This document shows positions 11,583 to 38,255 of a stretch of 64,000 bases of DNA, piece after piece. How positions within the stretch are numbered: the stretch's first letter is position 1; each line of letters begins with the position of its first letter. The stretch is from Sneathiellales bacterium (lineage in GTDB: Bacteria; Pseudomonadota; Alphaproteobacteria; JANQFL01): assembly GCA_028277845.1 (NCBI GenBank), contig JANQFL010000074.1, positions 40,758 to 104,757 on the forward strand, in the 5' to 3' direction. The position numbers were made by a program, and so were the translations under genes. The notes under the pieces are model-generated. The model was not told the DNA's origin. It saw nothing but the letters and a program-made list of their open reading frames with translations, and did no database searches.

Positions 11583-11587
11583 TCGAT

Positions 11588-12855: not shown

Positions 12856-13092
12856 AGCTTTCGGCGTCCAATTGCGTGCCGAAATCTTGAGAGTGCGCCA
12901 ATAGCGATAAGCATCAAAGTCACGGTCTTCGCGATCCCACTTTTTTGAATTTTCGCTCAATGCGGCAGCCCTGACAACCGCCTAGCGGCACTCTATGTAA
13001 CAAACCGGGCTCTATCCTTGGTCGTAGAGCCGTTCGAAGAGTTCGACTGCTGGTGTCGAATTTCTTGAGTGTATCTATAATAAAATGATAAT

Positions 13093-18440: not shown

Positions 18441-20747
18441 TTAAGTGTCTGACTGAGCGAGGACCGCTTCCACCTTGCGTGCCAGATCCGCCTTACGGAA
18501 TGGCTTCTGCAACAGCGTGATGCCGTCATCCAACCGGTCGTGGTGGATGATCGAATTTTCCGTATACCCCGACATGAACAACACGCCGATGCCGGGAAAC
18601 TGCTCGACGATTTGATCGGCGAGTTCCCGGCCGTTGATCCCGCCCGGCAGCACCACGTCGGTGATCAGCAAATCGATGCCGCCATTGGTGCGCATGATCT
18701 CAATGGCGCTGTCGCCCTTCTCCGCTTGCAGCACGGAATATCCCAACGATTCCAGCATGGTGACGGTCAGATCGCGGACATCCTCGTCATCTTCCACGAC
18801 CAGTATCTTGGCGTCCTGCGGGGTCTTGATTTCGGCAAGCTTGGCGGCGTCGGCGCCCGTGTCTCCGGATGCCTGTGCCGCCCGCGGAATATACAATTTG
18901 ACCGTCGTTCCCTCGCCTTCTTCGCTGTAGATCTTGGCGTGGCCGCCCGACTGTTTGGTAAATCCGTACACCATGCTCAGGCCCAGCCCGCTTCCCTTGC
19001 CGACTTCCTTGGTCGTGAAGAACGGCTCGAACGCCTTCTCGACGGAATCTTCGGACATGCCGACGCCCGTATCGGTGACCGCGAGCATGACATACTGTCC
19101 CGGTTCGAGATCCAGCTGCATGGCGGCATACTCGTCGTCGAGCCGCGCGTTCGCCGTTTCGATGGTCAGCCTGCCGCCGTCGGGCATGGCGTCGCGGGCA
19201 TTGATCGCCAGATTGAGAAGGGCGTTTTCCATCTGTACGTGGTCGACCTCGCATGACCATAAACCGCCGGCGATGACGGTCTCGATTTCGATGGTTTCGC
19301 CCAGGGTTCTTTGCAGAAGATCCGTCATTTCGCTGATCAGCCGGTTGAGATCGACGGCGTCCGGTTTCAGGGCCTGGCGCCGGGAAAACGCCAACAGACG
19401 TTGTGTCAGATTGGATCCGCGAATGGCGGCGGAAATGGATTTGTCGGCGAAATTCTGACGGTGATCGCCGCTCGGCAGATCGTCTTTCAACAGTTCCAGA
19501 TTGCCGATGACGACTGCAAGCAGGTTGTTGAAATCGTGGGCGATCCCGCCGGTCAATTGGCCGACCGCCTCCATCTTTTGAGACTGCCGCAACTGATCTT
19601 CCGCTTCTTCCGCTTTGGCGATCGCGTCCATTTCGGCGGACACGTCGGAACCGGTGCCGCGATACCCGGCGAAGTCTCCGTTTTCGTCGTATATCGGTTT
19701 GCCGCTGACGGACCAGCACTGCTCGCGCCGGTCCGGCGTGTGGAACTTGTAGCGGAAGTCGCGGAACGGTTTGCGCTCGGCGAGATCTTTCAGGTGCCGG
19801 TCCCATTTTTCGCCGTCGTCGAGATCCCGCACCAGTTCGGTCCGTGTCTTGCCGATAACGTCGTCGGGCGACAATCCCGACATCCGGTACGCGCCTTCGG
19901 ACATGTAGGTGAAGCGTAAGTCCGCATCCATTTCCCAGAACCAGTCGGACGACGCGTCGGCAAAGTCATGGAATCGTTGTTCACTGTGGCGCAGGGCTTT
20001 TTCGGCCGCGTTACGTAGCTGCAGATGGTCCTGGCTGGCGCTCAGGACCGAATTGGCCGTCTTCGATAGAAGTCCGAATTCGTCGTCCCGATGGACCCCT
20101 CCGAACGGCGCCTCGAACGGTTCCGGCGCGCGCGGGTTCACCATTCCCAGGCGGTGGACGAAAGCCGTCAAAGGGCGTGTCAATACGAGGTGGAACACGC
20201 CGAGAAGGATAAACGTCAGCAACAGGCTTCGGATGACGCCGAACGCCATGACGAACAGGGAACGGTCGAAAAAGGCGTTGAGGGCGGCATCACGATCCAC
20301 GGTGACCTTGAGGTATCCGAACACGGTGTCCTGATCGGGCTGGGTCAGTTCGATCTCATAGGTCGGGTAGGCGTCGCTGACACGGCTGGTGATCCAACTC
20401 GTCGGGCTGGAACTCCTGTTCCGTTCCAGACTGGCCAGCGCGTCGCCGAAATCGTCTATGACATGAGCATCGACGATAAAGCCGTAGTCCAGAAGGCCTT
20501 CGACCACCTGTGTCGCAAGGCGCTTGTCCAGCCGGTGCGCGGCCTGCGATGCGGATCGTTCGGAAACCCGGAGGATCTGGTTGACGATTTCGTCCAGTTC
20601 CTTGTCCTGTTCGGTGAAGTCCAGCGCAATTTGCAGCGCGCCGATGGCGGCACCCAGGATCAAGGCAAAGAGAACACCGTAGCGCGCCAGGCGAAACGCG
20701 ACGCGTTTGTGGAACGGTATCGGCTGGACCTGTTTTTCTGGTGCCAT
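18441..20747 (-). CDS. Hybrid PAS sensor histidine kinase/receiver
   Basis: 2 TM, PAS (SDWFWEMD), H-box IAHDFNNLL, NARDAM, FFTTK.VGKGSGLGL, REC domain (LVVEDD, ITDVVLPG). Confidence 0.93.
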   Translation of the reverse strand: MAPEKQVQPIPFHKRVAFRLARYGVLFALILGAAIGALQIALDFTEQDKELDEIVNQILRVSERSASQAAHRLDKRLATQVVEGLLDYGFIVDAHVIDDFGDALASLERNRSSSPTSWITSRVSDAYPTYEIELTQPDQDTVFGYLKVTVDRDAALNAFFDRSLFVMAFGVIRSLLLTFILLGVFHLVLTRPLTAFVHRLGMVNPRAPEPFEAPFGGVHRDDEFGLLSKTANSVLSASQDHLQLRNAAEKALRHSEQRFHDFADASSDWFWEMDADLRFTYMSEGAYRMSGLSPDDVIGKTRTELVRDLDDGEKWDRHLKDLAERKPFRDFRYKFHTPDRREQCWSVSGKPIYDENGDFAGYRGTGSDVSAEMDAIAKAEEAEDQLRQSQKMEAVGQLTGGIAHDFNNLLAVVIGNLELLKDDLPSGDHRQNFADKSISAAIRGSNLTQRLLAFSRRQALKPDAVDLNRLISEMTDLLQRTLGETIEIETVIAGGLWSCEVDHVQMENALLNLAINARDAMPDGGRLTIETANARLDDEYAAMQLDLEPGQYVMLAVTDTGVGMSEDSVEKAFEPFFTTKEVGKGSGLGLSMVYGFTKQSGGHAKIYSEEGEGTTVKLYIPRAAQASGDTGADAAKLAEIKTPQDAKILVVEDDEDVRDLTVTMLESLGYSVLQAEKGDSAIEIMRTNGGIDLLITDVVLPGGINGRELADQIVEQFPGIGVLFMSGYTENSIIHHDRLDDGITLLQKPFRKADLARKVEAVLAQSDT

Positions 20748-20924
20748 TTCCGGGGTCCGGAAAGCGTTCTGCACGTGAGGGTCGTTGTTCCAAAATGACT
20801 ATTAAAGGTATCGCCGATTATATGGAGATGAAAGGGATGTGTTGTTTGGAGAAAATGTTGAATCAGACCGGATTTTATTTCGCTAATCCGTCCGGCGGAC
20901 ACTCAATACGCCGGTTTGGGCAAC

Positions 20925-23771: not shown

Positions 23772-25028
23772 GTGGATGGCTTGAAATACTCGATCTTCAG
23801 TCTGGTCCGCAATGCACTGGGTTATCACGAAGGCTGGCCGCGGGCCTGGCGCAGCCCCGATCCCAAGCCGGAATACGACGTCGTCATCGTCGGCGGCGGC
23901 GGCCACGGCCTGGCCACGGCGTATTACCTGGCGAAGGAGCACGGAATCACCAACGTGGCGGTGCTGGAAAAGGGCTGGCTCGGCGGCGGCAATACCGGCC
24001 GCAATACCACGATCATCCGCTCCAACTATCTGTGGGACGAGAGCGCCCATCTCTACGAACACTCCCTCAAGCTCTACGAGGGGCTGAGCCAGGACATCAA
24101 TTACAACATCATGCTGAGCCAGCGCGGCGTGCTCAATTTGGCGCACAATCTGCACGACTTGCGGGAGCTGAGCCGGCGGGTCAACGCCATCCGGCTCAAC
24201 GGCATCGATTCCGAAATCCTCGATACGGCGCAGGTCAAGGCCATGGTGCCCATCCTCAACGCCTCCCAGCAATCGCGCTATCCGGTGCTCGGCGCTTCGT
24301 TGCAGAAGCGCGGCGGCGTCGCCCGGCACGACGCCGTCGCCTGGGGACTGGCCCGTGCCGCCGACGCCCGCGGCGTCGACATTATCCAGCAATGCGAGGT
24401 TACGGGCATCGTCCGGGACGGCGGCAAGGTCACGGGCGTCGAAACCACGCGCGGCCTGATCCGGGCCGGGAAGGTCGGTATCGTCACGGCCGGCCACACC
24501 AGCGTGCTGGCGGCCATGGCCGGGATCCGCCTGCCGATCGAAAGCCACCCGTTGCAGGCGCTGGTGTCCGAACCGATCAAGCCGGTCCTGCACACCGTGG
24601 TCATGTCCAACGCGGTGCACGCCTATGTCAGCCAATCGGACCGCGGCGAGCTGGTCATGGGCGCGGGCATCGACGGCTACAACGGCTACAGCCAGCGCGG
24701 CAGCATCCCGGTCATCGAACACATGCTGGCCTCCATTGTCGAACTGTTCCCCATATTCAGCCGTCTGCGCATGATGCGCCAGTGGGGCGGCATCGTCGAC
24801 ACCTGCCCCGATGCCAGCCCGATCATTTCGAAGACGCCAGTAGACGGCCTCTATATCAACGGCGGCTGGGGCACCGGCGGTTTCAAGGCGACGCCCGGGT
24901 CGGGCTGGGTGTTCGCCCATACCATCGCCCAGGACCGGCCCCATGCCCTCAACGCCGCGTTCAACCTGGACCGTTTCACATCAGGCGCCTTGGTCGACGA
25001 GCACGGCGCCGCGGCTGTGGCCCACTAG
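23772..25028 (+). CDS. soxB: Sarcosine oxidase beta subunit
   Basis: [53 protein letters not shown]; start may be TTG 23781. Confidence 0.96.
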
Positions 25029-25039
25029 GAGCACCGAAG

Positions 25040-25339
25040 ATGTTGTCGATACCCTGCCCCTGGTGCGGACCGCGCGACGAAACCGAGTATTCCTACGGCG
25101 GCGAAGCCCACATCGTACGGCCGGAAGATCCCCAGGCTTTGAGCGACCGTGAATGGGCGGACTATCTGTTCATGCGCGCCAATACCAAGGGGGCGCACCG
25201 CGAACGTTGGGTTCACAGCCACGGCTGCCGCCGCTGGTTCAATGTGGAGCGCAACACCGCCACCAACGAAATCATCGCCGTCTACAAAATGGGGGAGTCG
25301 CCGCCCGGTGACGGTACCGGCGGGGACGGCGCGCCATGA
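25040..25339 (+). CDS. soxD: Sarcosine oxidase delta subunit
   Basis: MLSIPCPWCGPRDETEY...ERWVHSHGCRRWFN zinc motif. Confidence 0.95.
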   Translation: MLSIPCPWCGPRDETEYSYGGEAHIVRPEDPQALSDREWADYLFMRANTKGAHRERWVHSHGCRRWFNVERNTATNEIIAVYKMGESPPGDGTGGDGAP

Positions 25340-28300
25340 CACAGCGCCAGCGCTTGGCCAAGGGCGGCCGCATCGATCGCACCCGATTGTTGAGTTTCAC
25401 GTTCGACGGCCGGTCCTACAAGGGGTATGCCGGTGATACGCTGGCGTCGGCGTTGATGGCCAATGGCGTTTCGGTCCTGGGCCGCAGTTTCAAGTATCAC
25501 CGGCCGCGTGGGCTGTTCGGCGCCGGTGCGGAGGAACCGAACGCCATCGTGCAGTTGGAGGAAGGTCCGGACACCATCCCCAATCTGCGCGCGACGCAGG
25601 TCGAGCTCTACGACGGGCTGATGGCGTCGAGCGTCAACGCCTGGCCCGGGCTCGACTGGGACATCGGCGAAATCAACAGCCTGTTCTCGCGCGTTTTGCC
25701 GGCCGGTTTTTACTACAAGACCTTCATGTGGCCGGCCAGCTTCTGGATGAAATACGAGGAGGTGATCCGCCGTGCGGCCGGGCTGGGCCGCTGTCCGGAA
25801 CATCCCGATCCGGATACCTACGACAAGATGCACGCCCATTGCGACGTGCTCGTGGTCGGCGGCGGGCCGGCGGGCCTGATGGCGGCCCTGACCGCGGGGA
25901 AGGCGGGCGCCCGCGTCATCCTGGCCGACGAACAAACCGAATTCGGTGGCGCGCTGCTGGACCGCCGGAATGCGATCGACGGCAAACCCGCGGCGGACTG
26001 GGTTGCGGCCGCCGTCGCGGAACTTGAGGCCATGGAGGACGTCCGGCTTCTACCCCGCACCCACGCCGCGGGGTATTACGAACATAATTTTTTGACCCTA
26101 CTCGAGCGCAAGACCGACCATTTGCATCCAGTGGCACGGCGTCGGACACCCGGCCCGCGGCAACGCCTGTGGAAGGTCCGGGCGGCGCAGGTGGTGCTGG
26201 CCACCGGTGCCATCGAACGGCCTCTGGTGTTCGCCGACAACGACCGGCCGGGTGTGATGCTGGCGTCGGCGGCCCAAACCTATGTCAACCGCTACGGCGT
26301 CAAGCCGGGGTCGCGGGCCGTCGTGTTCACCAACAACGATTCCGCCTACGCCGCCGCCATGGATTTGCACGACGGCGGTGTCGACATCGCCGCCGTCGTC
26401 GACCTGCGCGAAAACCCCGGTGGCGCCCTGGTGACCGAAGCCCGCGGCAAGGGCATTACCGTTTTGGACGGTCGTGCCGTCGTCGCCACCGAAGGCCGCA
26501 AGCGCGTTCAGGCGGTCGATGTCGCGCCCCTGAGCGCCGACGGCCGTGTCGCGGAAGGCGCGCACCGCCGGTTCGAATGCGATCTGGTGCTGGTCTCCGG
26601 CGGCTGGAATCCGGCGGTTCATCTGTTCAGCCACGCCGGCGGCAAGTTGTCGTTCGAACCGGATCGCGCCCAGTTCCTGCCCGGTACGACACCCTTGCCA
26701 TGCCGTGCCGCCGGATCTGCCAGCGGCGACATTCAACTGGCGCAGTGTCTGGCCAACGGACAAAAGGCCGGCGAAGTCGCCGCGGCGGCAAACGGGTTCC
26801 GCAGGCGGGGGCGCCTGCCCGGCATTCCGCAATGTGACGATGTGGCCGAAGGGCCGATGCGGCATGTCTGGCAGGTGCCGGGCCGAAAACCGGCGGCGCA
26901 ACTGAAGCAGTTTGTCGATCTGCAACATGACGTCACGGCAGCGGACGTGCACCTGGCCGCCCGGGAAGGCTATGAGTCGGTCGAACACTTGAAGCGTTAC
27001 ACGACACTCGGCATGGGGACCGACCAGGGTAAGACCGCCAACATCAATGGCCTGGCCATCATGGCGGAAACGCTCGGACGCGATATTCCCGGCGTCGGGA
27101 CCACGACCTTCCGGCCACCCTACACACCGGTCACGCTCGGCGCCATGGCCGGCCGGGATGTCGGCGCGTTGGCCGACCCGGTACGGCGTACGCCGATGCA
27201 TCACTGGCACGAGACCGCCGGCGCGTTGTTCGAGGATGTCGGCCAGTGGAAACGGCCCTGGTATTACCCCAAACAGGGCGAATCCATGCAGGACGCCGTG
27301 GATCGGGAGTGTTTGGCCACCCGGAACGCCATCGGCGTGCTCGACGCGACGACTCTCGGCAAGATCGACATTCAGGGACCGGATGCCGCCGAACTGCTCA
27401 ATCGTGTCTATACCAACGCCTGGAGCAAACTGGCGGTCGGGCGTTGCCGTTACGGGTTGATGCTGGGCGAAGACGGCATGGTCATGGACGACGGCGTGAC
27501 CACATGTCTTGGCGAAAATCACTATCTGATGACAACGACCACCGGCAACGCCGCCCGGGTGATGGGCTGGCTCGAGGAATGGCTGCAGACGGAATGGCCC
27601 GATCTCAAGGTCTACCTCAACTCGGTCAGTGAATATTGGGCCACGATCGCCATTGCCGGCCCCTTCGCCCGGGAACTGTTGGCGGAGTTGACGGACGATA
27701 TCGACGTCGCGAACGAAGCCTTCCCCTTCATGTCGCTGCGCTCGGGAACAGTGGCGGGCATCCCGGCCCGGGTTTTCCGTATCAGCTTCACGGGCGAAGT
27801 CAGTTTCGAGATCAATGTGCCGTCGACCTACGGGCTGGCCATGTGGAACGCGGTGATGATGGCCGGGGAGAAATACGGCATCACACCGTTCGGCACCGAA
27901 ACCATGCACGTACTGCGCGCCGAGAAGGGCTACATCATCGTCGGCCAGGACACCGACGGGACGATCACGCCCGGCGATCTGGGCATGGACTGGATCGTGT
28001 CGAAAAAGAAACCCGATTTCATCGGCAAACGCAGTCTGAGCCGGCAGGATACGGCGCGGTCCGACCGCAAGCAGCTGGTCGGTTTGTTGACGGAAAATCC
28101 GTCCGAAGTCCTGCCGGAAGGCGGTCAGATCGTCGCGATCGTCAAGGACAGCCCGCCCATGGATATGATCGGCCACGTCACGTCCAGCTATTACAGCGCC
28201 AATCTCGGGCGGTCCATTGCCCTGGCATTGGTCAAGGGGGGGCATGACCGTCTTGGGAAGTCGGTCTATGTGCCTTTGGAAGGGCGAACGGTAAAGGCGA

Positions 28301-28353
28301 AGGTGTCCAAGACGGTGTTTTTCGATCCGGAAGGAGAACGGCTCAATGGTTGA
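25336..28353 (+). CDS. soxA: Sarcosine oxidase alpha subunit
   Basis: GDTLASAL, RSFKYHRPRG, GFYYKTFM, KRYTTLGMGTDQGK, GcvT-like C-terminus. Confidence 0.96.
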   Translation: MTQRQRLAKGGRIDRTRLLSFTFDGRSYKGYAGDTLASALMANGVSVLGRSFKYHRPRGLFGAGAEEPNAIVQLEEGPDTIPNLRATQVELYDGLMASSVNAWPGLDWDIGEINSLFSRVLPAGFYYKTFMWPASFWMKYEEVIRRAAGLGRCPEHPDPDTYDKMHAHCDVLVVGGGPAGLMAALTAGKAGARVILADEQTEFGGALLDRRNAIDGKPAADWVAAAVAELEAMEDVRLLPRTHAAGYYEHNFLTLLERKTDHLHPVARRRTPGPRQRLWKVRAAQVVLATGAIERPLVFADNDRPGVMLASAAQTYVNRYGVKPGSRAVVFTNNDSAYAAAMDLHDGGVDIAAVVDLRENPGGALVTEARGKGITVLDGRAVVATEGRKRVQAVDVAPLSADGRVAEGAHRRFECDLVLVSGGWNPAVHLFSHAGGKLSFEPDRAQFLPGTTPLPCRAAGSASGDIQLAQCLANGQKAGEVAAAANGFRRRGRLPGIPQCDDVAEGPMRHVWQVPGRKPAAQLKQFVDLQHDVTAADVHLAAREGYESVEHLKRYTTLGMGTDQGKTANINGLAIMAETLGRDIPGVGTTTFRPPYTPVTLGAMAGRDVGALADPVRRTPMHHWHETAGALFEDVGQWKRPWYYPKQGESMQDAVDRECLATRNAIGVLDATTLGKIDIQGPDAAELLNRVYTNAWSKLAVGRCRYGLMLGEDGMVMDDGVTTCLGENHYLMTTTTGNAARVMGWLEEWLQTEWPDLKVYLNSVSEYWATIAIAGPFARELLAELTDDIDVANEAFPFMSLRSGTVAGIPARVFRISFTGEVSFEINVPSTYGLAMWNAVMMAGEKYGITPFGTETMHVLRAEKGYIIVGQDTDGTITPGDLGMDWIVSKKKPDFIGKRSLSRQDTARSDRKQLVGLLTENPSEVLPEGGQIVAIVKDSPPMDMIGHVTSSYYSANLGRSIALALVKGGHDRLGKSVYVPLEGRTVKAKVSKTVFFDPEGERLNG

Positions 28354-28960
28354 TCCCTATCTCCGGCAAAGCCCGTTGGCGCATATGCACCTGAATACCC
28401 GCCCGGTGTCGACGGACGCCACGGTTTGGCTCAGGGAAGAGCCGTTCCGCACCCAAATTGTTCTGCGCGGAAACGCCGACAAAAAGCCGTTTCGCGATAG
28501 CGTGGAATCTGCCGTGGGCTGTGCCTTGCCCCGGGAACCCAATTCGGTGACCGGGCCGACCGACTTGAACGACGGCACGCGCATCCTGTGGCTCGGCCCG
28601 GACGAATGGCTTCTGGTCGCGCCGGTCGGCAACGAGCAACAACTGATGGAGACGCTGGCCGATACGCTCACGAAATTCCACGCCGCCGCGGTGGATGTCA
28701 GTGAAAGCCGCACGGTCCTTTCCGTCGGCGGGCCGAGCGCATCCGAGGCCCTGGCCAAGGGGTGCAGTCTGGATCTCCACCCCCGGTCCTTCGCGACGGG
28801 GCAGTGCGCCCAGTCGGAAATCGCGCGCGCGCACGCCATATACCACAAAGTCGGCGAAGACCCCGTTTTCGAGCTCTACATCCATCGCAGCTACGCCGAA
28901 TACGTTTGGATGTGGCTCGAAGATGCAACCGGAGAGTATGTCCCGGTGGCCGAGGGATAA
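28346..28960 (+). CDS. soxG: Sarcosine oxidase gamma subunit
   Basis: LWLGPDEW, VDVS, LAKGCSLDLHP, RSYAEY; operon position. Confidence 0.93.
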   Translation: MVDPYLRQSPLAHMHLNTRPVSTDATVWLREEPFRTQIVLRGNADKKPFRDSVESAVGCALPREPNSVTGPTDLNDGTRILWLGPDEWLLVAPVGNEQQLMETLADTLTKFHAAAVDVSESRTVLSVGGPSASEALAKGCSLDLHPRSFATGQCAQSEIARAHAIYHKVGEDPVFELYIHRSYAEYVWMWLEDATGEYVPVAEG

Positions 28961-29117: not shown

Positions 29118-30500
29118 ATGTCGGACGAATCGAGGGACCTGATCGATCGGCAGATAACCGCCGAATTGGTGGATATGGCGTTTCGCGGAACCGGGCTCAG
29201 CCTGCTGGTCGAGCCGGTCGCCGTCGGTGCCATGGCCGTGCTGTTCTACAACTCCGTACATCCCCAGGGGTTGGCGATCTGGGTTTCCCTGGTTCTCAGC
29301 GCAACCGCGTTTCGCGCCATCCTCTGGCACCGGTTTCACGGTTCCTCGCCGGAAGTTCGAAGCCAGGCCCGTTGGGGGCAAATTCTCGCGGTATCCATGT
29401 TGGTGTCCGGATTTGTCTGGGGCGGCGCCACGGTGCTGGTCTGGCCCGGCGGCTCGTTGACCGGCCAACTCGCCCTGTTCGGCATCGTCAGTATGGCGAC
29501 GATCGGGATGTGCGGCTTGGTCACCGGCTACATTCCGGCGGCCAATGCGTTTCTGGGCGCCCTGCTGATCGTCGTTGTGCCGGTCATGATTACGAAGCAG
29601 GACGTCACCTACTACGTCACGGTGGCGTTTGCCCTGGTCTATGCGTTGATGCTGCTGGCCATCGCCCATCACATCAGAAATTTGCTGCGCCGGTCGGCGG
29701 AACTGCGTGTCGATCTGTCGGACGCCCGCGATGCGGCCCAGGCGGCCAACCACACCAAGTCCGAGTTCATTGCCAATATGAGCCACGAACTGCGGACGCC
29801 GCTCAACGCCATCATCGGGTTTTCCGAGATCATCCAGCAGCAGACCTTCGGTCCGATCGAAAATGACCGCTACAAGGATTACATCGACGACATCCTGAAT
29901 AGCGGCCGTCACCTGCTCGGAATTGTCACCGAAATCCTCGATCTGTCGAAGATCGAGGCCGGCAAGATGGATCTCAACGAACAGGAATGCAATGTGGCCG
30001 GCCTGGTTGACGGGTGCATCACGTTCCTGCGCCAGAAAGCCGACGAAGCGGGCGTCATGGTGGTCAACGAGCTGCCGCCTCATGCGCCGTCCATTGTCGG
30101 CGATGAACGGGCGCTCAAGCAGATCGTCATCAATCTTCTGTCCAATGCCATCAAATTCACGCCGATCGGGGGCGAGGTACGCATTCGGCTCGACCCCTCT
30201 TCAACCGGCGGCATCAGTTTGAAAATCCGCGATACGGGGATCGGCATCGCCCCGGAGGACATCAAGAAGGTGATGGATCCCTTCGGTCAGGTGGAAAACG
30301 CCTATTCACGCCAGCATGAAGGCACCGGCCTCGGACTGCCGCTGGTCAAGGCGATGACCGAAATGCATCATGGGACTTTCCATCTGACGAGCGAAGTCGA
30401 CCTGGGAACGGAAGCGATCGTCGAGTTTCCCGAGGATCGCGTGATCGGAGCGTTCGATTACGCACCGCTGCAGTCAGAGGTTGTTTCGGTCCCGCACTAG
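29118..30500 (+). CDS. Multi-TM sensor histidine kinase (PleC/DivJ-like kinase core)
   Basis: About 6 TM; [41 protein letters not shown]. Confidence 0.92.
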
Positions 30501-30743
30501 CGACTCCGCGGTGGTGCCGATCTGTAGCACCGTTGCAACAATCCCTCCGTAAAAACGATTGAACCGGTTGAGGCCGCCTTGGCGGCTGTGTCTGTTTTGT
30601 GTGAAGGTTTCTCTTTTCCTTCACTCAGGCGGGGCATTTTGTTAGGCTAAAGTTGTGCGTTTTGTAACAATAACAACATATTGATGTTTTGTGTTGAGTG
30701 AGTGGTTGATGTTGTGCGTTGAGTTAACAAGGGACCGAGTCTG

Positions 30744-32000
30744 ATGCCGGACAAGACCGCCGCGCCGCATCGTGGACGGCCGTCGGCGTCGCCGAGATGG
30801 GGTGAAATTCCGTCTCTGACGCGGCGAATCGATCAATTGTGGGTGGATCATCTGTATCCGCCCGTCGTCGTCGGCAGCACGCCCGGCCCGGACGCGCTTC
30901 TCCTCAGCAGCAACGACTATCTGGCGCTCTCCCACGACCGGCGCATTATCGACGCGCAAGTTCAGTCGTTGCGTGGCGCCGACAATGAACTGTTCATGTC
31001 GGGGGTGTATGCCCAGTATCTCGACTATCAGCGCGCCTTCGAGTTGGATATCGGAGAGCAGTTGGGGGCGGAAGATGTCGCGTTGTGCCAATCGGGATAC
31101 GCAGCCAACGAAGGTCTGATCCAGGTTCTCGCCGATGCCGATACACCCGTATATATCGACATGCAGGCGCATGCCTCGCTCTGGCAGGGGGCGCAGAACA
31201 CCGGCGCGCCGGTCTATCCGGTGCGCCACAACAACGCGCAGCATCTACGCACGCTGACCCGGAAGTATGGGCCGGGTGTCGTCTGCGTCGACGCCATCTA
31301 CAGCACTGTCGGCAGTATCTGCAATCTCGGCGACATCATCGACGTTTGCGAGGATAGCGGATCCATCCTGGTGGTCGATGAATCCCACTCCATCGGTGTT
31401 GTCGGCGAATTCGGTGAAGGGCTGGTCAGTTCCCTCGGCCTGGAAGACCGTGTGCCGTATCGCACATTCAGCCTGTCCAAGGCCCTAGTCGGCCGCGCCG
31501 GTATCGTGATGGGGCCGAAGCGGGTGATGGAATTCTTCCGCGGGGATTCCCGGCCGGCGATCTTCAGTTCCGCCGTCATGGGGTGGGAGATTGCCCGCTT
31601 TACGAAAACCTGGGACATCGTGCGGGACGAGAACTGGCGGCGCAAGGTGCTCTGGGACAATGCCCGGTATTTGAGCGACGGGCTCGATGCCCTGGGTTAT
31701 AACATGGACCTGACCGAAACGCCGATCATTCCGATTGAAGCGGGATCGGAAAACGCCACCAAATTGCTGCGCGATACCCTGGAACGGGCCGGCATATTCG
31801 GCGCGGTCTTCTCCGGCCCGGCGACGCCGGCGAACCGCTGCATCGTCCGTTTCTGCGTCAATGCGGCCCACACAAAGGAAGACCTCGACCGGGTGATCGA
31901 GGTCTGCGACCAGGTGCGTGACGACGTGGGTATGGCGAACTGGGCGTCCACCCGCCGCCGCAAAGGCCGGGCGCAGAACGTCGTTTCATTGAAGCCCTGA
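30744..32000 (+). CDS. cqsA: Alpha-hydroxyketone autoinducer synthase, CqsA/LqsA-like (PLP, AONS fold)
   Basis: SNDYLAL, LFMSGVY, QSGYAANEGLIQ, YIDMQAHASLWQG, YGPGVVCVDAIYST, VDESHS, SLSK (PLP Lys), PAIFSS, FGAVF..PAT: a motif series characteristic of CqsA rather than BioF. Confidence 0.88.
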   Translation: MPDKTAAPHRGRPSASPRWGEIPSLTRRIDQLWVDHLYPPVVVGSTPGPDALLLSSNDYLALSHDRRIIDAQVQSLRGADNELFMSGVYAQYLDYQRAFELDIGEQLGAEDVALCQSGYAANEGLIQVLADADTPVYIDMQAHASLWQGAQNTGAPVYPVRHNNAQHLRTLTRKYGPGVVCVDAIYSTVGSICNLGDIIDVCEDSGSILVVDESHSIGVVGEFGEGLVSSLGLEDRVPYRTFSLSKALVGRAGIVMGPKRVMEFFRGDSRPAIFSSAVMGWEIARFTKTWDIVRDENWRRKVLWDNARYLSDGLDALGYNMDLTETPIIPIEAGSENATKLLRDTLERAGIFGAVFSGPATPANRCIVRFCVNAAHTKEDLDRVIEVCDQVRDDVGMANWASTRRRKGRAQNVVSLKP

Positions 32001-32047
32001 ATTTCGCGCCGGTCTGAACGGCGTACCGCCCACTTTCCGGCCGCTGC

Positions 32048-33412
32048 TCAGCCGTGCGGTTGATCCGGCATCACCGGCAACATGATGATGACTTCCGTGA
32101 ATTCGCCGGGTTCCGAACGGGCGGAAATCGTGCCGCCGAATCGGTCGATGACGGCGGCGCAGAAGCGCAATCCCGATCCGGCGCCCTCCGGCGTGGTCAC
32201 ATGGTTGCCGTAGGTTTCGAACAGGCGGGACACCACCTGCTTGGGCATGCCGACCCCCTGGTCGCGGATCTTGATCACATTGCCCTGGGGTGTGGCGGCG
32301 ACTTCGAAAAGCACCTTGCCGGTCCCTTTCAGGGAGACGGCCTGAAGGGCGTTCTTCGTCAGGTTCAGCAGGACGTGGGTCATGAGATTGACCGAGCCGT
32401 TGAACATGAAGTCGTTGTCCTTGCGCCAGGTGATGCGGGCCCGTTCCCGGTCTGATTTGAAGGGGTAGCGCCGCAATGCCTCGTTGATGCAGTGACTGAT
32501 GGAGCACGGCCCGAGTTCGATGGAATGCAGGGGGAACTCGCCGGCGTTCATTTGCATCATGCTGACGACCGCCAGCGTGTGTTCGATTTCCGTTTCGATC
32601 TGTTGCGGCACGTCGCCGACGGCCTTGAGATGATTGGCATCCAGGTCCACCACGTCCAGGCCGGCGTGCTGGGCCTTGCCGTAGGCGTCGATCAGTTGCG
32701 GCAGGAAATGGCGCAGGCTGACGCTGCCGCGCTTGATCATCTGCAACGGCGGTCGGAGTTCCTTCGACAGGCTGTTCGCCGCGGCGGTCACCGCGCGCAT
32801 GCGTTCCTGCCGGATCATGCCGGCCTTGTAGTTGAACACCATGCCGCCAAGTACCAGAAACACCAGAACCGGGAAGTATTCGAAATAGAACTCGGTCTGC
32901 ATGCCCTCGGGCACGGTCACCGCGAAGACGCCCAGCGCGGCGGCCGATCCGACAACGTACAGAACCAGCAAATGAAACCAGTCGACCAACAGGATAAGGA
33001 AGAAGATCGCCGCCATCACCGACAACAGCCAGACGAACGAGGCGCCGTTCATCAGCATCATGTAGGTGAAAAAGAACGGCACGCTGTAAAGACACACGAA
33101 CAGGTAATAGACCCGCGTATAGCGGCGCAGCGACTCCGGCCATCGGTTGCGCAGCGCGAGTATCAGGCACAAGGCGGCGCCGATGGCTCGCAACAACAGG
33201 CTTTCGTACGGCTGCGGGAACAGAACGTCCCAGACGAGCCAGTACACCAGAAACGCGATCGCCGCGAACAGGCCGACGAAAGTCAGGTTGGGTTCGACGT
33301 ACGTGAAATTCTGCTGACCGAGCGCGCGGACGTAGGCCGCCGCTTTCGCCAAGCGGTGTAAACCGTGTTTATCGGAGTTCGCTCCACCGTTGAGAGCACG
33401 GTCTTGGTACAC
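32048..33412 (-). CDS. cqsS: CqsS/LqsS-like membrane sensor, H-box His replaced by Lys, no receiver domain
   Basis: YVEPNLTFVG...W..LFPQPYESLLLR and PFFFTYMMLMN..S.VWLLS typical of the CqsS/LqsS sensing domain; H-box reads SKELRPPL; HATPase N/G1/F/G2 boxes present. Confidence 0.85.
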   Translation of the reverse strand: MYQDRALNGGANSDKHGLHRLAKAAAYVRALGQQNFTYVEPNLTFVGLFAAIAFLVYWLVWDVLFPQPYESLLLRAIGAALCLILALRNRWPESLRRYTRVYYLFVCLYSVPFFFTYMMLMNGASFVWLLSVMAAIFFLILLVDWFHLLVLYVVGSAAALGVFAVTVPEGMQTEFYFEYFPVLVFLVLGGMVFNYKAGMIRQERMRAVTAAANSLSKELRPPLQMIKRGSVSLRHFLPQLIDAYGKAQHAGLDVVDLDANHLKAVGDVPQQIETEIEHTLAVVSMMQMNAGEFPLHSIELGPCSISHCINEALRRYPFKSDRERARITWRKDNDFMFNGSVNLMTHVLLNLTKNALQAVSLKGTGKVLFEVAATPQGNVIKIRDQGVGMPKQVVSRLFETYGNHVTTPEGAGSGLRFCAAVIDRFGGTISARSEPGEFTEVIIMLPVMPDQPHG

Positions 33413-33648: not shown

Positions 33649-33975
33649 GTGGATCGAGTACGCGAAGCCATCTGCACCGCAGCGTCCGATTTGGGCGAGG
33701 ATTTCAGGACGATTTCGGAACGAATCGGCCTGGAGACGGCCTATCTCGAGCGATTTATCGAGCAGGGATCGCCGACCGCCTTGCCGCGGGACATCGGCCG
33801 GCGACTGGCCGGTGAGCTCGGCCTTCCCGCCGGTGTGCTCGAGCCGCCAAGGGGCGTGCCTTATTCGGCGGAGCGCAGCCATTCCGCTGCTCCGCCCGAC
33901 CTGACGGTTGTCGCCGGCGGAAATCCCACCCGGTCAACTCCCCTTCATACACGGCCCCGGTCGGCCGCATCGTAG
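33649..33975 (+). CDS. Small HTH protein resembling the N-terminal domain of alphaproteobacterial S24/phage-repressor-like regulators
   Basis: ISERIGLETAYLERFIEQGSPTALP...RRLAGELGL; no peptidase domain. Confidence 0.55.
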   Translation: MDRVREAICTAASDLGEDFRTISERIGLETAYLERFIEQGSPTALPRDIGRRLAGELGLPAGVLEPPRGVPYSAERSHSAAPPDLTVVAGGNPTRSTPLHTRPRSAAS

Positions 33976-33997: not shown

Positions 33998-35548
33998 CTA
34001 ATGGCTGGCGTCCGGCATGCTGGCTTTCTTGGCATCGATGAACGCGTTGAGCGCCTCGTCAAGGGCCGGGTCCAGATCCGGCGCCTCGTAGCGCGCCAGC
34101 ATGTCCTTCCATAGCCCGTTGGCCCGTTGCGCCGCATCCCGGCTGCCTTCGGCTTCCCATTGTTCCACCGAATTGTTGTCGGCCACGGGAGAACGGTAGA
34201 ACGCGGTCTCGAAATGGGCCTGGGTGTGGCCGCAACCGAGGAAGTGATTGCCCGGCCCCACTTCGCGGATGGCGTCCATGGCCTGGCCGTCGTCGCTCAG
34301 ATCGACGCCCTTGGCCAGCACCTGCATCATGGCGCATTGGTCCGCGTCCATGACGAATTTCTCGTATGACGCCGCCAGGCCGCCCTCCAGCCAGCCGGCC
34401 GCATGCAGCACGAAATTGACCCCGGCCATCAGGGTCGGCAACAGCGTCTGGGCGCTCTCATAGGCCGCCTGGGCGTCGGGCACCTTGGAGCCGCAGAGCG
34501 AGCCGCCGGAGCGGAACGGCACGCCAAGGCGCCGCGCCAGTTGCGCCGCGCCGTACAGCACCAGGGCCGGTTCCGGCGTACCGAAGGTGGGCGCGCCCGA
34601 CTGCATGGAAATCGAGCTGGCGAAGGTGCCGAACACGACCGGCGCGCCCGGCCGCACCAGTTGGGTCACGGCCATGCCGGCCATGGCCTCGGCCAGGATC
34701 TGGGCCAGGGTGCCGGCCACGGTGACCGGGCTCATGGCACCGGACAGGATGAACGGCGACACCACGCAGGCCTGGTTGGCCCGGGCGTAGGCCTTCAAGG
34801 CGCCGAGCATGGTGGCGTCGAAGACCATCGGCGAATTGGCGTTGATCAGATTGACGACCACGCAGTTGGCGTCGACGAAATCGGCGCCGAACAGGATGCG
34901 GCACATCTCCACCGTGTCCTCGGCCCGCAAAGGGTGAGTGACCGAGCCCATGAACGGTTTGTCGCTCAGCCGCATGTGGCTGTAGACCATGTCCAGGTGG
35001 CGCTTGTTCACCGGCAGATCGACCGGCTCGCACACCGTGCCGCCGGAATGATGCAGGCCGGGGCTGAGATAGGCCAGTTTGACGAAGTTCCGGAAGTCCT
35101 CGATGGTCGCGTAGCGCCGCCCTTCATCGAGATTACGGATAAACGGCGGGCCGTAGACCGGCGCGAACACCGTATTGTTGCCGCCGATCTCCACGTTGCG
35201 GGCCGGGTTGCGGGCATGCTGGGTGAACTGTTTCGGTGCGGTGGCCAACAGCGTCCGCGCCAGGCCGCGCGGGATGTGCACCCGCTCGCCCCGCACGTCG
35301 GCGCCGGCGTTGCGCCACAATTCCAGCGCCTCGTCATCTTCCCGGAAATCGATACCGATCTCTTCCAGAATGGTTTCGGCGTTGTACTCGATGGTTTCGA
35401 GGCCATCGTCGCTCAACACCTCGGTCAGCGGGATCTGCCGGCTGATGTAGGGAGCCTGCTGCTCCACCGGGGCCGCCCGCGCCGCCCGCCGGGCCTCGCG
35501 CCCGCCGCCTGCCCGCCGGCCGCGCCGGCCGGTCTGTTCCTGCGCCAT
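33998..35548 (-). CDS. mttB: Trimethylamine methyltransferase family (MttB-like, non-pyrrolysine; probable glycine betaine:corrinoid methyltransferase)
   Basis: HARNP, APVYGPPF, GGTVCEPVD, SDKPFMG, SGAPTFGTPE, HAAGWLEGG; no in-frame amber. Confidence 0.92.
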   Translation of the reverse strand: MAQEQTGRRGRRAGGGREARRAARAAPVEQQAPYISRQIPLTEVLSDDGLETIEYNAETILEEIGIDFREDDEALELWRNAGADVRGERVHIPRGLARTLLATAPKQFTQHARNPARNVEIGGNNTVFAPVYGPPFIRNLDEGRRYATIEDFRNFVKLAYLSPGLHHSGGTVCEPVDLPVNKRHLDMVYSHMRLSDKPFMGSVTHPLRAEDTVEMCRILFGADFVDANCVVVNLINANSPMVFDATMLGALKAYARANQACVVSPFILSGAMSPVTVAGTLAQILAEAMAGMAVTQLVRPGAPVVFGTFASSISMQSGAPTFGTPEPALVLYGAAQLARRLGVPFRSGGSLCGSKVPDAQAAYESAQTLLPTLMAGVNFVLHAAGWLEGGLAASYEKFVMDADQCAMMQVLAKGVDLSDDGQAMDAIREVGPGNHFLGCGHTQAHFETAFYRSPVADNNSVEQWEAEGSRDAAQRANGLWKDMLARYEAPDLDPALDEALNAFIDAKKASMPDASH

Positions 35549-35687
35549 GTCGTCTACTCGTCTGATTAGGATCGTTGCCGTTCGATCCAGTGTACGCCAG
35601 TCACCCGTGCCGCCGACTTGCGCGGGTCCGTCCCGTTGTGGCTTGCGCGCGCCCTCCCGTCGGATGTTGGATGCGGCCGTGCCTATC

Positions 35688-38255
35688 CTACGATTTCATG
35701 CGCCCATTGGTCGGGTCGTAGAGCGGTTTGTAACCGACGGCCTCGACCTGGACCGGGAACTTTTGATTGAAGTATTCGATCTCGAGCTGGCGGCCCTCTT
35801 CGCAGTAATCCTGCGGCAGGTAGCCGAGCGCGATGTTCTTGCCGAGTGACGGACCGTAGGCCAGGCTGGTGGTGTAGGAGCGCCGGCCAAGCGCGTCGAT
35901 CAGCACCTCGTCGGACTTGGGATCGACGATGGGACAGTTGCCCATGGGGTAGCGCGCCACGCCGTCCTTGTCGGTATTGTCCGTGACCGTGAGCGTACAA
36001 AGCATCGCCGGCTGGTGCGGCCGTTCGCGCTGCGCGACATAGGCCGCCTTGCCGTGGAAATCGGCGGTCTTGACCTTCGGGCGGGCGAGACCGGCCTCGA
36101 CCAGATTGTACTCGGTCAGAAGGTCCGCGTTCTGTAGCCGCAGGCTTTTCTCCAGCCGGCGGCTGTTGGCGTAGGTCTCGATGCCGATCGGGGTGATGCC
36201 GGCTTCAAGGAACATGTCCCACAAGGCCAGGCCGTAGCTCAACGGGAAGTGCAGTTCCCAGCCCTGCTCGCCGACATAGGAAATGCGGAAGCCTTTCACC
36301 GGCACGCCGCGCAGGGTGAAGTCCCGGCTGGCCGCGAAGGGGAAGTTTTCCGGGTCCAGTCCGGCCGGGTCGTCGGCCAGCGTCTTCAGGCGCTCGCGGG
36401 CGTTCGGCCCCCAGACGCCGATGCAGCCGTAGTGATCGGTGCGGTCCTCGACGAACACCGACCATTCCTTGTCCTGCACCATACGGCGCAGGTAGGTCAT
36501 GTCGCGATGGCCGGCGTCGGCGCCGTCGATGACGCGGAAGCGGTCCTCGGCAAGCCGCAGCACGGTCAGGTCCGCCTGCACGCCGCCGGCGGCGTCGAGG
36601 AAATTGGTGTAGACCCCCTTGCCGACCGGCGTATCGCCCGCGACCTTCGAGGACGACACATACTCCATCAGCCGTTCCGCGTCGCGGCCCGAAACGTCGT
36701 AAATGGTGAAGTGGGACAGGTTGATCATGCCGACGTTTTCCGACAGCTCCAGATGCTCTGCGTTGGAGACGCGCCAGAAATGGCGGTTGTCCCATTCGTT
36801 CTCGCGCACCGGCACGCGGTCGGCGTATTTGGCCAGCAGCGTCTCTTCGTTGGACGCGTAGCCGTGCGCCCGTTCCCAGCCGGCGATGTCCATGAAGTAG
36901 CCGCCCAGTTCCCGCTCGCGCAGATAGAACGGGCTGCACCGCAGGTTCCGGCCCTTGGAGTAGGGCTCGCGGTTGTGGACGGGCGGATTGTAGATCTTGA
37001 ACGCCGTCTCGTAGCAGCGGTCGTAAATGAAGGGCTCGGTCTTCTGGACGGGGTAGTAGCGGGCGTAATCGATGGCATGATGATCGAACTCGGTGCGCCC
37101 GTCGGTCATCCAGTCGGCGATCACCTTGCCCGTGCCCGGGCCGTCCTTGATCCAGACCGACACGCCGTACCACAGGCCGCGCACGTCCGGCGACTCGCCG
37201 ATGGACGGCCCGCCGTCGGCGGTCACCTGAAGCAACCCGTTGAAGGAGTGCTTCTCGTTGTAGCCCAGCTCGCCGAGGATCGGCGTCAGTTCCATGGCGC
37301 GTTCCAGGGGTTCCATGATCTGTTCCATTTCCAGATCGCGCTGGGAGGGCGAGAGGCGGGCCTCCTCTTTTTCCAGCAGGTCGCGCGGATGCACGAGGCG
37401 GGGCGCCTTCTCCTCGTAGTAACCCCATTCGATCTGACCGCCCTCGGCGGTTTTCGGATCACCGGTGTCGCGCAGATAGGCGGAGTTGCCCTGGTCGCGC
37501 AGCAGCGGATAACCGATTTCCTTGCCGGTACCCGCGAATTCGTTGTAGGGCCCGAAGAAGGTCAGCGGATGGTCGACCGGCATGACGGGCAGGTCCTCGC
37601 CCGCCATCGCCGCGATCAGGCGGCCCCACAGGCCGGCGCAGACGACGACGTAACTCGTCTCGATGTAACCGCGCGACGTGTGGACGCCCTTGATGCGACC
37701 GTTCGCGATGTCGAGGCCGGTGCACGGCGTGTTGGCGATGACTTCCAGCTTGCCGGTTTCCTCGGCGTCGCGGATCATTTCTCCGGCGACCACCTGGGAG
37801 CGCGGGATGACCAGGCCCGCGTCCGGATCCCACAGCGCGCCCTGGATGAGGTCTTCCTCGATGATCGGTAACAGTTCCTTCACCCGCTTCGGCGTGATCA
37901 GTTCGACCCGGTTGCCGAAGGCGCGGCCGGAGCTGACCCGGCGTTCGAGTTCGCGCATGCGCTCGTCGTCGCCCTTGCGGGCGACCTCGATGCCGCCGAT
38001 GCGGGAATAGCGGCCGCGCTTCTCAAAAAAGTCGATGCTGTATCTGGTCGTGAAGATCGTCATCTGGTCGTGCATCGTGTTGAAGCAGAAATCCGACGCA
38101 TGGCCGGTCGAGCCGATGTCGGTGGGAACACCTGATTTGTCGATCCCGATGATGTTGTCCCAACCCCGCTCGATCAGGTGGTGGGCAACCGAGGCCCCGA
38201 CGATGCCGCCCTGTCCGATGATCACGACGTTCGCGCTTTTCTGGAACTGCGCCAT
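35688..38255 (-). CDS. FAD-dependent oxidoreductase-GcvT fusion (dimethylglycine oxidase/dehydrogenase-like)
   Basis: GQGGIVG, GSTGHASDF, LRDQ, GWER, RISYVGEQGWELH, RLEKS, YDP. Confidence 0.88.
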   Translation of the reverse strand: MAQFQKSANVVIIGQGGIVGASVAHHLIERGWDNIIGIDKSGVPTDIGSTGHASDFCFNTMHDQMTIFTTRYSIDFFEKRGRYSRIGGIEVARKGDDERMRELERRVSSGRAFGNRVELITPKRVKELLPIIEEDLIQGALWDPDAGLVIPRSQVVAGEMIRDAEETGKLEVIANTPCTGLDIANGRIKGVHTSRGYIETSYVVVCAGLWGRLIAAMAGEDLPVMPVDHPLTFFGPYNEFAGTGKEIGYPLLRDQGNSAYLRDTGDPKTAEGGQIEWGYYEEKAPRLVHPRDLLEKEEARLSPSQRDLEMEQIMEPLERAMELTPILGELGYNEKHSFNGLLQVTADGGPSIGESPDVRGLWYGVSVWIKDGPGTGKVIADWMTDGRTEFDHHAIDYARYYPVQKTEPFIYDRCYETAFKIYNPPVHNREPYSKGRNLRCSPFYLRERELGGYFMDIAGWERAHGYASNEETLLAKYADRVPVRENEWDNRHFWRVSNAEHLELSENVGMINLSHFTIYDVSGRDAERLMEYVSSSKVAGDTPVGKGVYTNFLDAAGGVQADLTVLRLAEDRFRVIDGADAGHRDMTYLRRMVQDKEWSVFVEDRTDHYGCIGVWGPNARERLKTLADDPAGLDPENFPFAASRDFTLRGVPVKGFRISYVGEQGWELHFPLSYGLALWDMFLEAGITPIGIETYANSRRLEKSLRLQNADLLTEYNLVEAGLARPKVKTADFHGKAAYVAQRERPHQPAMLCTLTVTDNTDKDGVARYPMGNCPIVDPKSDEVLIDALGRRSYTTSLAYGPSLGKNIALGYLPQDYCEEGRQLEIEYFNQKFPVQVEAVGYKPLYDPTNGRMKS

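Follow-up and report, generated by a model that had tools for sequence, protein, structure and literature searches.

A CqsS-type receptor without its phospho-acceptor histidine, encoded beside a CqsA-type synthase and a separate membrane histidine kinase in an alphaproteobacterium

Synthase and receptor genes at the locus

The 64,000-nucleotide stretch of DNA analysed here (the window; part of contig JANQFL010000074.1 of the Sneathiellales bacterium assembly GCA_028277845.1) carries a putative locus for alpha-hydroxyketone (AHK) quorum sensing. A synthase gene of the CqsA/LqsA type (cqsA) converges on a gene for a CqsS/LqsS-derived membrane receptor (cqsS*) and is preceded by a gene for a separate membrane histidine kinase (HK460). 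The receptor has lysine where its family carries the phospho-acceptor histidine. The whole analysis is computational, and gene starts are those of the longest open reading frame (ORF). The elements that carry the argument are the following.

29118-30500, forward strand: HK460, intact membrane histidine kinase (460 residues; six predicted transmembrane (TM) helices in residues 25-183, HisKA and HATPase_c domains)
30744-32000, forward strand: cqsA, cqsA/lqsA-type gene for an acyltransferase dependent on pyridoxal phosphate (PLP), the AHK autoinducer synthase by family (418 residues; NF005526, Pfam Aminotran_1_2)
32001-32047: gap between the convergent stops of cqsA and cqsS* (47 nucleotides; the terminator scan reported no site inside it)
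32048-33412, reverse strand: cqsS*, gene for a CqsS/LqsS-derived receptor with six TM helices (454 residues; conserved sensor domain, a helix pair resembling a dimerization and histidine phosphotransfer (DHp) domain, an ATPase domain, no receiver domain)
32762-32764, reverse strand: codon AAG for Lys217 at the position of the phospho-acceptor histidine (H-box SKELRPPL versus the family consensus AHELRTPL)

CqsA has the class-I/II aminotransferase fold (Pfam) and scores 455.3 bits with the NCBIfam equivalog NF005526 (alpha-hydroxyketone-type quorum-sensing autoinducer synthase), for which the cut-off is 428. The models for BioF (211 bits, cut-off 426), serine palmitoyltransferase (SPT, 210), Kbl (194) and 5-aminolevulinate synthase (ALAS, 124) all stay below their cut-offs. 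In the PDB the best match is the Vibrio cholerae CAI-1 synthase (2wk8) with 252 bits, versus 157 for SPT. The translation contains VVDESHSIG and FSLSKALVG; SLSK, with the PLP lysine, pairs with SLAK of the solved V. cholerae CqsA and VVDESHS with its LVDESHS, and D212, E213, S214, H215 and K246 are invariant columns of the alignment (n = 32 homologues). By these sequence criteria CqsA is a true member of the CqsA/LqsA family, with a match far beyond chance, and its product would be an AHK or an amino-ketone, as family membership suggests. An earlier reading of the same DNA, made from the letters alone (the sequence-only reading), had named the enzyme from its motifs and proposed the comparison with BioF, Kbl and SPT; the comparison bears it out.

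The same genome encodes a second CqsA (C93:14156-15424, minus strand), which reaches 489 bits on NF005526 and is 49% identical to the CqsA of the window; the sole further family match in the genome is its ALAS, with 668 bits on TIGR01821. In a CqsA tree rooted on this ALAS, both CqsA proteins and those of loci L012, L018, L033 and L173 group in a 12-tip alphaproteobacterial clade (support 0.93). There is no CqsS-like gene near the second cqsA and no second one anywhere in the genome, and if both synthases make AHKs, the two paralogues would share one receptor. The second cqsA converges on the gene for a 681-residue cytoplasmic PAS-HisKA-HATPase-receiver hybrid kinase and diverges from that for another 460-residue kinase with six TM helices (region C93:12090-16979, partly covered by L001). 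The latter kinase, 460b, is also encoded divergently from cqsA in L027 and L013; it was rejected as a member of the HK460 family, because its similarity to HK460 is confined to the kinase core (43% over residues 203-456).

The receptor, CqsS*, is 34% identical over 95% coverage to a Legionella massiliensis protein named CqsS by NCBI, and its full-length relatives are named CqsS by both JGI and NCBI. Its translation contains the sensor motifs YVEPNLTF, LFPQPYESLLLRA and VPFFFTYMMLMNG, and residues W61, P66, Q67, E70, R75, F114, F115 and N122 are invariant in its alignment (A2, n = 24 homologues). Pfam recognizes HATPase_c only, and a receiver domain is absent. The hydrophobicity profile has six segments and the AlphaFold2 model (mean pLDDT 80.7) has six TM helices, followed by a long helix (residues 173-249) that bears residue 217, a second helix (259-289) and an alpha/beta domain (301-445). 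The modelled fold is an ordinary kinase fold, in which the first DHp helix carries Lys217. The sensor domain is strongly conserved, from which we infer that CqsS* binds an AHK. The sequence-only reading was right that cqsA converges across 47 nucleotides on a CqsS/LqsS-type sensor with six TM helices: the stops face each other across 32001-32047 and the sensor motifs fall on invariant columns.

That reading took the protein for a membrane sensor and overlooked Lys217. The family profile places the H-box histidine of CqsS on the phospho-histidine of the solved kinases ZraS (AHEIRNPL) and FixL (AHELNQPL). The AAG codon of Lys217 is two base changes away from a histidine codon (CAY), and two proteins from independent assemblies (P0002 and P0003), 83-84% identical to CqsS* of the window, likewise carry lysine. 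Since both show the same residue, Lys217 is not a sequencing error, and because the phospho-acceptor histidine is replaced by lysine, CqsS* cannot be a canonical sensor kinase.

A clade of receptors that lose their catalytic half

The alignment of CqsS-like proteins comprises 171 sequences: the window protein, 23 from a first search and 147 representatives of an exhaustive search. The H-box histidine is kept in 148 of them, together with both N-box asparagines and both G2 glycines in 148/148 and the G1 aspartate in 147/148. The remaining 23 lack the histidine, and many of these have also lost ATP-binding residues. Trees were built with FastTree on quick MAFFT alignments and rooted at the midpoint. 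They take in locus ORFs of 400-560 residues only, which leaves out cyclase fusions, receiver hybrids and fragments, as well as L148, a long-branch oddity; short forms (297-325 residues) were added to the tree of 154 sensors.

In this tree of 154 sensors, CqsS* of the window falls within a clade of 30 tips (SH-like support 0.998). The histidine is absent from 29 of the 30 members, which have K, R, Q, D, A, S, N or G instead, and is kept by 120 of the 124 sensors outside. The lone member with a histidine, from a Marinicaulis metagenome-assembled genome (MAG; locus L035), has degenerate ATP-binding motifs throughout (N-box ST, G1 IGG, G2 GA). All 30 members are thus without something needed for autophosphorylation, be it the histidine or at least one ATP-binding residue. 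The nesting of L035 inside the clade (nodes 0.90-0.99) indicates that the histidine was probably lost more than once, on a tree whose method is unrooted. The window protein and its closest relatives (P0002, P0003 and P0004) are the least decayed and keep every ATP-binding motif; in most other members these motifs are degenerate or absent. At the far end stands a short form of 297-307 residues without an ATPase domain, found in three genomes of one genus (G062, G234 and G363) and in P0299 and P0026.

Conservation changes along the protein in the same sense. Pairwise identity inside versus outside the clade is 0.46 versus 0.41 for the TM sensor, 0.33 versus 0.45 for the DHp region and 0.30 versus 0.49 for the ATPase domain. 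Judged by these identities, selection has shifted in the clade: constraint on the ligand-sensing half is no weaker than in true kinases, and on the catalytic half it is relaxed. The loss of the catalytic histidine, the degeneration of the kinase motifs across the clade and the truncation of the protein in some genomes would also suit a functionless, decaying remnant, with the synthase serving only to produce a metabolite or a signal addressed to other species. Such an account has at best a slight chance of being right: the reading frame is open in 30/30 members, identity in the sensor domain is higher within the clade than beyond it, 22 columns are invariant in an alignment of 16 proteins without the H-box histidine, and the module is retained across divergent alphaproteobacterial lineages.

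The clade differs from other CqsS-like sensors also in what is encoded nearby. An LqsR-like gene lies within 400 nucleotides of 85 of the 98 locus-derived, histidine-bearing sensors outside the clade, versus 0 of the 10 clade loci, and several of the 13 exceptions outside are contigs of only 1.6-2.4 kb. Neighbourhood counts, here and below, cover sensors from retrieved loci; clade proteins known only by database id (P0002-P0018, P0189-P0217 and others) stand outside them, and L171, the same record as L033, was removed from the LqsR counts. The LqsR-like family was defined by ten mutually matching locus proteins, one of which, used as a query, matches the solved 'Response regulator' 6sy9, presumably Legionella LqsR, at 1.6e-29. 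The ten queries find no LqsR-like gene in the whole genome of the window, only weak receiver-domain similarity (E of at least 5e-4). The contig carries neither an Hpt domain (six matches in the genome) nor a sigma-54 activator (14 matches in the genome).

The sequence-only reading had stated that the window lacks any partner like LqsR, LuxU or LuxO. This holds for LqsR in the genome and for Hpt proteins and sigma-54 activators on the contig, but the window does have two receiver-domain genes, for an OmpR-type regulator (12124-12960) and a PAS-kinase-receiver hybrid (18441-20774). Both lie 8-17 kb off, and neither is conserved near other such loci. Genome-wide, 61 reading frames have receiver domains, 15 of them short enough for single-domain regulators.

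Related sensor regions occur in other protein architectures. In L015 (11206-12915) and L037 (11221-13038), a CqsS-type sensor with six TM helices, encoded beside cqsA, is fused to a class III adenylate/guanylate cyclase (PF00211); L025, L051 and P0033 are similar. A CqsS sensor-cyclase chimera has been built artificially, according to the accessible part of a 2016 eLife paper (PMC4821796). In L176 (G151:C4, 4056-8981), two tandem cqsA genes converge on the gene for a 774-residue protein with a CqsS sensor followed by PAS, HisKA, HATPase and receiver domains, the kinase core of which differs from that of CqsS/LqsS. A contig of a soil-type metagenome (L129:471-3716) encodes a protein of 1081 residues that begins with a CqsS-like sensor region, has asparagine in place of the H-box histidine and includes a Big_2 Ig-like domain; the 7.7 kb examined contain no cqsA.

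HK460 and the proposed three-protein module

HK460, the intact kinase that ends 243 nucleotides upstream of cqsA, was likewise overlooked by the sequence-only reading. It matches the Pfam domains HisKA (1e-20) and HATPase_c (3.9e-29), and its H-box SHELRTPLN (S222 to N230) is invariant in 10 orthologues. A full-length match to HK460, membrane part included, adjoins the cqs genes in all nine clade loci with enough context (L116, which ends inside cqsA, was left out of this count), and in none of the 98 loci of histidine-bearing sensors outside the clade, many of which are short contigs. The genes are arranged as follows.

HK460, then cqsA, both converging on cqsS*: window, L012, L018, L033
The same order with an extra gene for an MMPL-CqsA fusion between cqsA and cqsS*: L113
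cqsS, HK460, a cqsA-like gene and an MMPL-CqsA fusion gene, in this order and direction: L035
HK460, then a short cqsS after 3-5 nucleotides on the same strand: L173, L174, L175 (genomes of family f58)

Three gene orders occur among the nine loci, whose lineages are the window's own order, Hyphomicrobiales, Rhodospirillales, Marinicaulis and family f58, plus one contig from a metagenome. In six of the nine, HK460 immediately precedes cqsA. HK460, CqsS* and CqsA are the only protein families common to all of them. The layout of f58, with the gene for a receptor stump immediately after HK460, hints most clearly at a functional pair of receptor and kinase.

Two additions to this gene set were seen at related loci. 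Fusions of an MMPL protein (a lipid transporter of the resistance-nodulation-division (RND) type) with a CqsA-like enzyme, about 1190-1210 residues long, are encoded at L017:2931-6491 and L113:8552-12178, with long frames in L016, L014 and L035 and a further example in P0157. Among the loci, the Pfam assignment covers L017 and L113 only; P0157 combines PF03176 and PF00155. The fusion gene usually follows a stand-alone cqsA-like gene, and the architecture suggests that signal synthesis and export are coupled. In the closest named relative locus (L012), a short-chain dehydrogenase/reductase-like frame with the motif TGGNGGIG (11229-12056, minus strand) fills the 806-nucleotide space between cqsA and cqsS*. 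Its product could modify that of CqsA; the window is without such a gene.

Attempts to place HK460 more precisely failed. Its membrane domain was considered as a diverged CqsS sensor and rejected (hhalign probability 0.7%); a protein-atlas search with this domain returned unnamed clusters only, MASE-type families at 0.87 being a lead and nothing else. The nearest named NCBIfam models, DivJ (217.7 versus a cut-off of 1000) and PdhS (213 versus 2000), stay far below their cut-offs, and TorS, LuxQ and BarA score nearly the same. Naming its partner from the kinase core was also rejected, the PDB matches being generic and many alphaproteobacterial kinases being 40-49% identical to the core.

A conventional origin of the phosphate can be imagined for the window protein: CqsS* would be a kinase of the LqsS kind, with a different phospho-acceptor residue and a response regulator encoded elsewhere, and HK460 would be a chance neighbour. 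Its ATP-binding motifs are intact, and the receiver-domain frames counted above, including the 15 candidate single-domain regulators, offer possible targets. We consider this quite improbable. No alternative conserved histidine was found near the H-box of CqsS* (the one 19 residues downstream is asparagine in P0004 and P0005), the HK460 neighbourhood is kept in 9/9 loci despite rearrangements, and the DHp and ATPase domains change more quickly than those of true kinases.

The reading that we prefer is that HK460, cqsA and cqsS* form a three-gene AHK module in which the signal is sensed by a pseudokinase co-receptor, CqsS*, which in turn controls HK460. From an acyl thioester and a donor of the amino-acid type, CqsA would make a hydroxyketone or amino-ketone similar to CAI-1/LAI-1. 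CqsS* would keep the six-helix ligand-binding domain and, with lysine in place of histidine, would not autophosphorylate at the canonical site; it would bind the signal and change the activity of the neighbouring intact kinase with six TM helices, HK460. The two proteins would be coupled through membrane contacts, through contacts between the two DHp helical hairpins, or both, and control would run from receptor to kinase. HK460 would then phosphorylate an unlinked response regulator. A pseudokinase receptor acting through HK460 is proposed because the loss of LqsR, the loss of the histidine with the decay of the ATP site, the retention of the sensor and the constant linkage to the kinase coincide in one clade. 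We put the probability of this reading at about 0.5.

Several points weigh against it. The proposed contact between CqsS* and HK460 is conjectural. The clade has a single evolutionary origin, so the association in 9/9 loci does not amount to nine independent events. In two of the three f58 genomes (G062 and G363), cqsA lies about 35 kb from the HK460-cqsS* pair. Neither a response regulator nor a fourth conserved gene was found around the nine clade loci. HK460-like kinases with 33-42% full-length identity occur in alphaproteobacterial genomes in which no CqsS-like gene and no CqsA above the cut-off (0/5) was found, and the type of N-terminal membrane domain found in HK460 is widespread (44/401 genomes of the class); since such relatives occur in genomes without cqs genes, the HK460 kinase family does not need CqsS*. 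Around eight HK460-like genes in cqs-less genomes, one adjacent regulator of 240 residues was seen, in G186 only. Finally, CqsS* of the window retains all ATP-binding motifs, namely N-box NLTKNAL (NN), G1 DQGVG (DGG) and G2 GSGL (GG), and with an apparently intact ATP site it may have kept some enzymatic activity. A complex prediction of full-length CqsS* (alignment A3) with HK460 (A4) gave a score of 0.01 against a mark of 0.32, in a run whose controls did not fold, and was used neither for nor against binding.

The intact ATP site leaves room for a split kinase, a variant of the preferred model in which CqsS* of the window would be an active ATPase that phosphorylates the histidine of HK460 in trans within a mixed dimer. 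The window protein, P0002, P0003 and P0004 keep N-box NN, G1 DGG and G2 GG, and the ATPase domain is confidently modelled. However, most clade members have lost the ATP-binding residues or the whole domain and yet keep HK460, so that the general mechanism cannot be of this kind, and the ATPase domain of HK460 itself is complete. A division of labour of this sort is decidedly doubtful.

A different arrangement, in which the two proteins do not work together, is suggested in part by the DNA between HK460 and cqsA, which contains two features.

30572-30587, forward strand: terminator-like hairpin after HK460 (GGCCGCCTTGGCGGCT, then a T-rich tail), from the consensus scan
30600-30743: A+T-rich region upstream of cqsA, candidate promoter or regulatory region

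The scan found nine terminator sites in the region versus 4.8 expected, so the hairpin weakly suggests that HK460 and cqsA are separate transcripts. The intergenic region (30501-30743) has 48% G+C, versus 63% for the window, and contains a direct repeat of 10 nucleotides (GTTGTGCGTT, at 30652-30661 and 30711-30720, 59 nucleotides apart) upstream of cqsA; its A+T-rich stretch is a probable promoter or regulatory region. GTTAACA-like words upstream of cqsA also occur in L018 and L033. A DNA motif shared upstream of cqsA in seven loci was sought by eye, and none was convincing.

CqsS* and HK460 would then be functionally separate. CqsS* would sequester a regulator, as DivL does, or act as a signal sink, and HK460 would sense another cue and control the expression of cqsA. 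The hairpin and the A+T-rich region fit this, as do the occurrence of HK460-like kinases without any cqs genes and the position of HK460 directly upstream of cqsA in 6/9 loci, where a regulator of the synthase might be expected. In f58, however, HK460 and the truncated cqsS* are 3-5 nucleotides apart and cqsA is up to 35 kb off, which makes the link of kinase and receptor, not that of kinase and synthase, the tightest one. The loss of LqsR, the loss of the histidine and the gain of HK460 also coincide in one clade. Separate roles are considered unlikely.

For the clade as a whole, the preferred reading becomes a proposal with a chance just short of even: AHK quorum sensing would have been rewired to three proteins, with a CqsS-derived pseudokinase that controls HK460 in place of signalling from LqsS to LqsR or from CqsS to LuxU. 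The kinase half would have been lost stepwise (first the histidine, then the ATP site and finally the whole ATPase domain), and in the genome analysed here two CqsA proteins would feed one receptor. The sequence-only reading had allowed for new downstream wiring, correctly as it turns out, and this can now be specified as a receptor without histidine, no LqsR and a conserved extra kinase. Overall, its observation is confirmed and its interpretation is supported in part.

Setting of the module and comparison with known systems

One more gene next to the module deserves mention.

33649-33975, forward strand: candidate small protein of the XRE-like helix-turn-helix (HTH) type, divergent from cqsS* (108 residues, GTG start; membership of the module uncertain)

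Pfam gives no match for this protein. It has homologues in L018 (4758-5048, between HK460 and cqsA) and L176 (3350-3706, just upstream of the tandem cqsA genes). Three paralogous copies lie elsewhere in the genome (C2, C5 and C35, by jackhmmer), and a core of about 65 residues is common to the family. The L176 copy touches HTH_19/HTH_3 at E-values of 0.002-0.008, below the cut-offs. The protein is a candidate local regulator only.

The module sits between sarcosine oxidase genes (23772-28960, with soxG at 28346-28960) and genes for an MttB-family methyltransferase and a dimethylglycine-dehydrogenase-like protein (33998-38255); these flanking genes make up a cluster for the catabolism of methylated amines (glycine betaine/sarcosine). 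A recent horizontal insertion of the module finds no support, its G+C content, overall and at third codon positions (GC3), being close to that of the flanks. The genome (5.39 Mb in 124 contigs, 98.5% complete, with the window on C90) has a permuted transfer-messenger RNA with the tag ANDNYAEARLAA. The alphaproteobacterial host assumed by the sequence-only reading is upheld: the genome is of the same class as G185, whose sequence is identical to that of the Hyphomicrobiales record behind locus L033. The nearest genomes compared are related only at class level (40/40), the window's own order being otherwise unrepresented in the genome set. A single sequencing run, of a coral metagenome from which the assembly may derive, contains the stretch in full; no RNA sequencing run containing the stretch was found.

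To our knowledge, AHK signalling has been studied experimentally only in Vibrio, Legionella and Janthinobacterium, and in all three the receptor is itself the kinase. In Alphaproteobacteria, AHK genes are not new as a sequence observation. A genome scan yielded CqsA homologues in Niveispirillum irakense and in MAGs assigned to Alphaproteobacteria, Rhodospirillales, Hyphomicrobiales, Magnetovibrio and Marinicaulis; that of Oceanibacterium hippocampi bears the CqsA family name at NCBI, and many others are named by NCBI and JGI. A CqsS-like gene is present in 15 of the 401 genomes of the class that were sampled. Rhodomicrobium vannielii appears in the strain list in the figure legend of a CqsA tree from 2013 (PMC3566124, accessible in part). 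The novelty that the sequence-only reading saw in an AHK system of this class stands in one respect, in that the partly accessible literature yielded no tested alphaproteobacterial system, and fails in another, the genes having already been named, placed in a tree and found in this share of genomes. Nor did that literature, as far as its text was accessible, link CqsS or LqsS in this sense with a pseudokinase or a missing conserved histidine. As far as this search goes, what is new is a conserved clade of decaying CqsS receptors without histidine and without LqsR, tied to a separate intact kinase with six TM helices.

If the preferred reading is true, an autoinducer receptor is coupled to a phosphorelay in a new way, and a histidine kinase has in nature become an accessory sensor. 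Members of the clade would be miscounted in metagenomic surveys that take 'cqsS' genes for functional sensor kinases. AHK signalling would also be possible in marine Alphaproteobacteria that live with corals, a setting in which acyl-homoserine lactones are commonly taken to be the dominant signals.

In gene layout, the locus is closest in kind to the lqsA-lqsR-(hdeD)-lqsS cluster of Legionella and the jqsA/jqsR/jqsS genes of Janthinobacterium, which have homologues in Burkholderia, Cupriavidus and Polaromonas (PMC3376566 and PMC3566124, both accessible in part). As there, the synthase is encoded beside a sensor of about 430-460 residues with six TM helices and no receiver domain, the sensor motifs are the same and the gene order is convergent or adjacent; this layout, LqsR-like gene included, is present in 85 of the 98 canonical loci examined. 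Unlike it, the genome of the window is without LqsR, the sensor has lysine in place of histidine, and an intact kinase, HK460, stands in the conserved neighbourhood.

In the Vibrio circuit CqsA-CqsS-LuxU-LuxO, the receptor is a hybrid kinase whose receiver domain feeds LuxU and LuxO. The synthase of the window resembles that of V. cholerae in the match given above and in the conserved PLP lysine and DESH, and the receptor is of the same type with six TM helices. Unlike in Vibrio, the sensor of the window has neither a receiver domain nor the histidine, and no Hpt protein or sigma-54 activator is linked to it.

The closest functional parallels lie outside AHK signalling. In Pseudomonas, RetS is a pseudokinase-type partner of GacS. 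In Caulobacter, the pseudokinase DivL has tyrosine in place of the histidine and CckA as its partner (from the accessible parts of PMC4211667 and PMC5361649). As in these cases, a protein with a kinase fold no longer serves as a phospho-acceptor, and its proposed target is a bona fide kinase instead of a response regulator, which is a functional analogy and not homology; in the PDB search with HK460, DivL and RetS surface only as generic matches to the kinase core. Unlike CqsS*, neither is an autoinducer receptor or is encoded beside its partner plus a signal synthase, and the interaction of CqsS* with HK460 is putative. A different parallel is offered by UhpC, an accessory membrane sensor that signals to the kinase UhpB. 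There too, ligand binding falls to a polytopic membrane protein and phosphorylation to a membrane kinase next to it, as is proposed here for CqsS* and HK460. UhpC derives from a transporter, whereas CqsS* derives from a kinase, the catalytic half of which is being lost stepwise.

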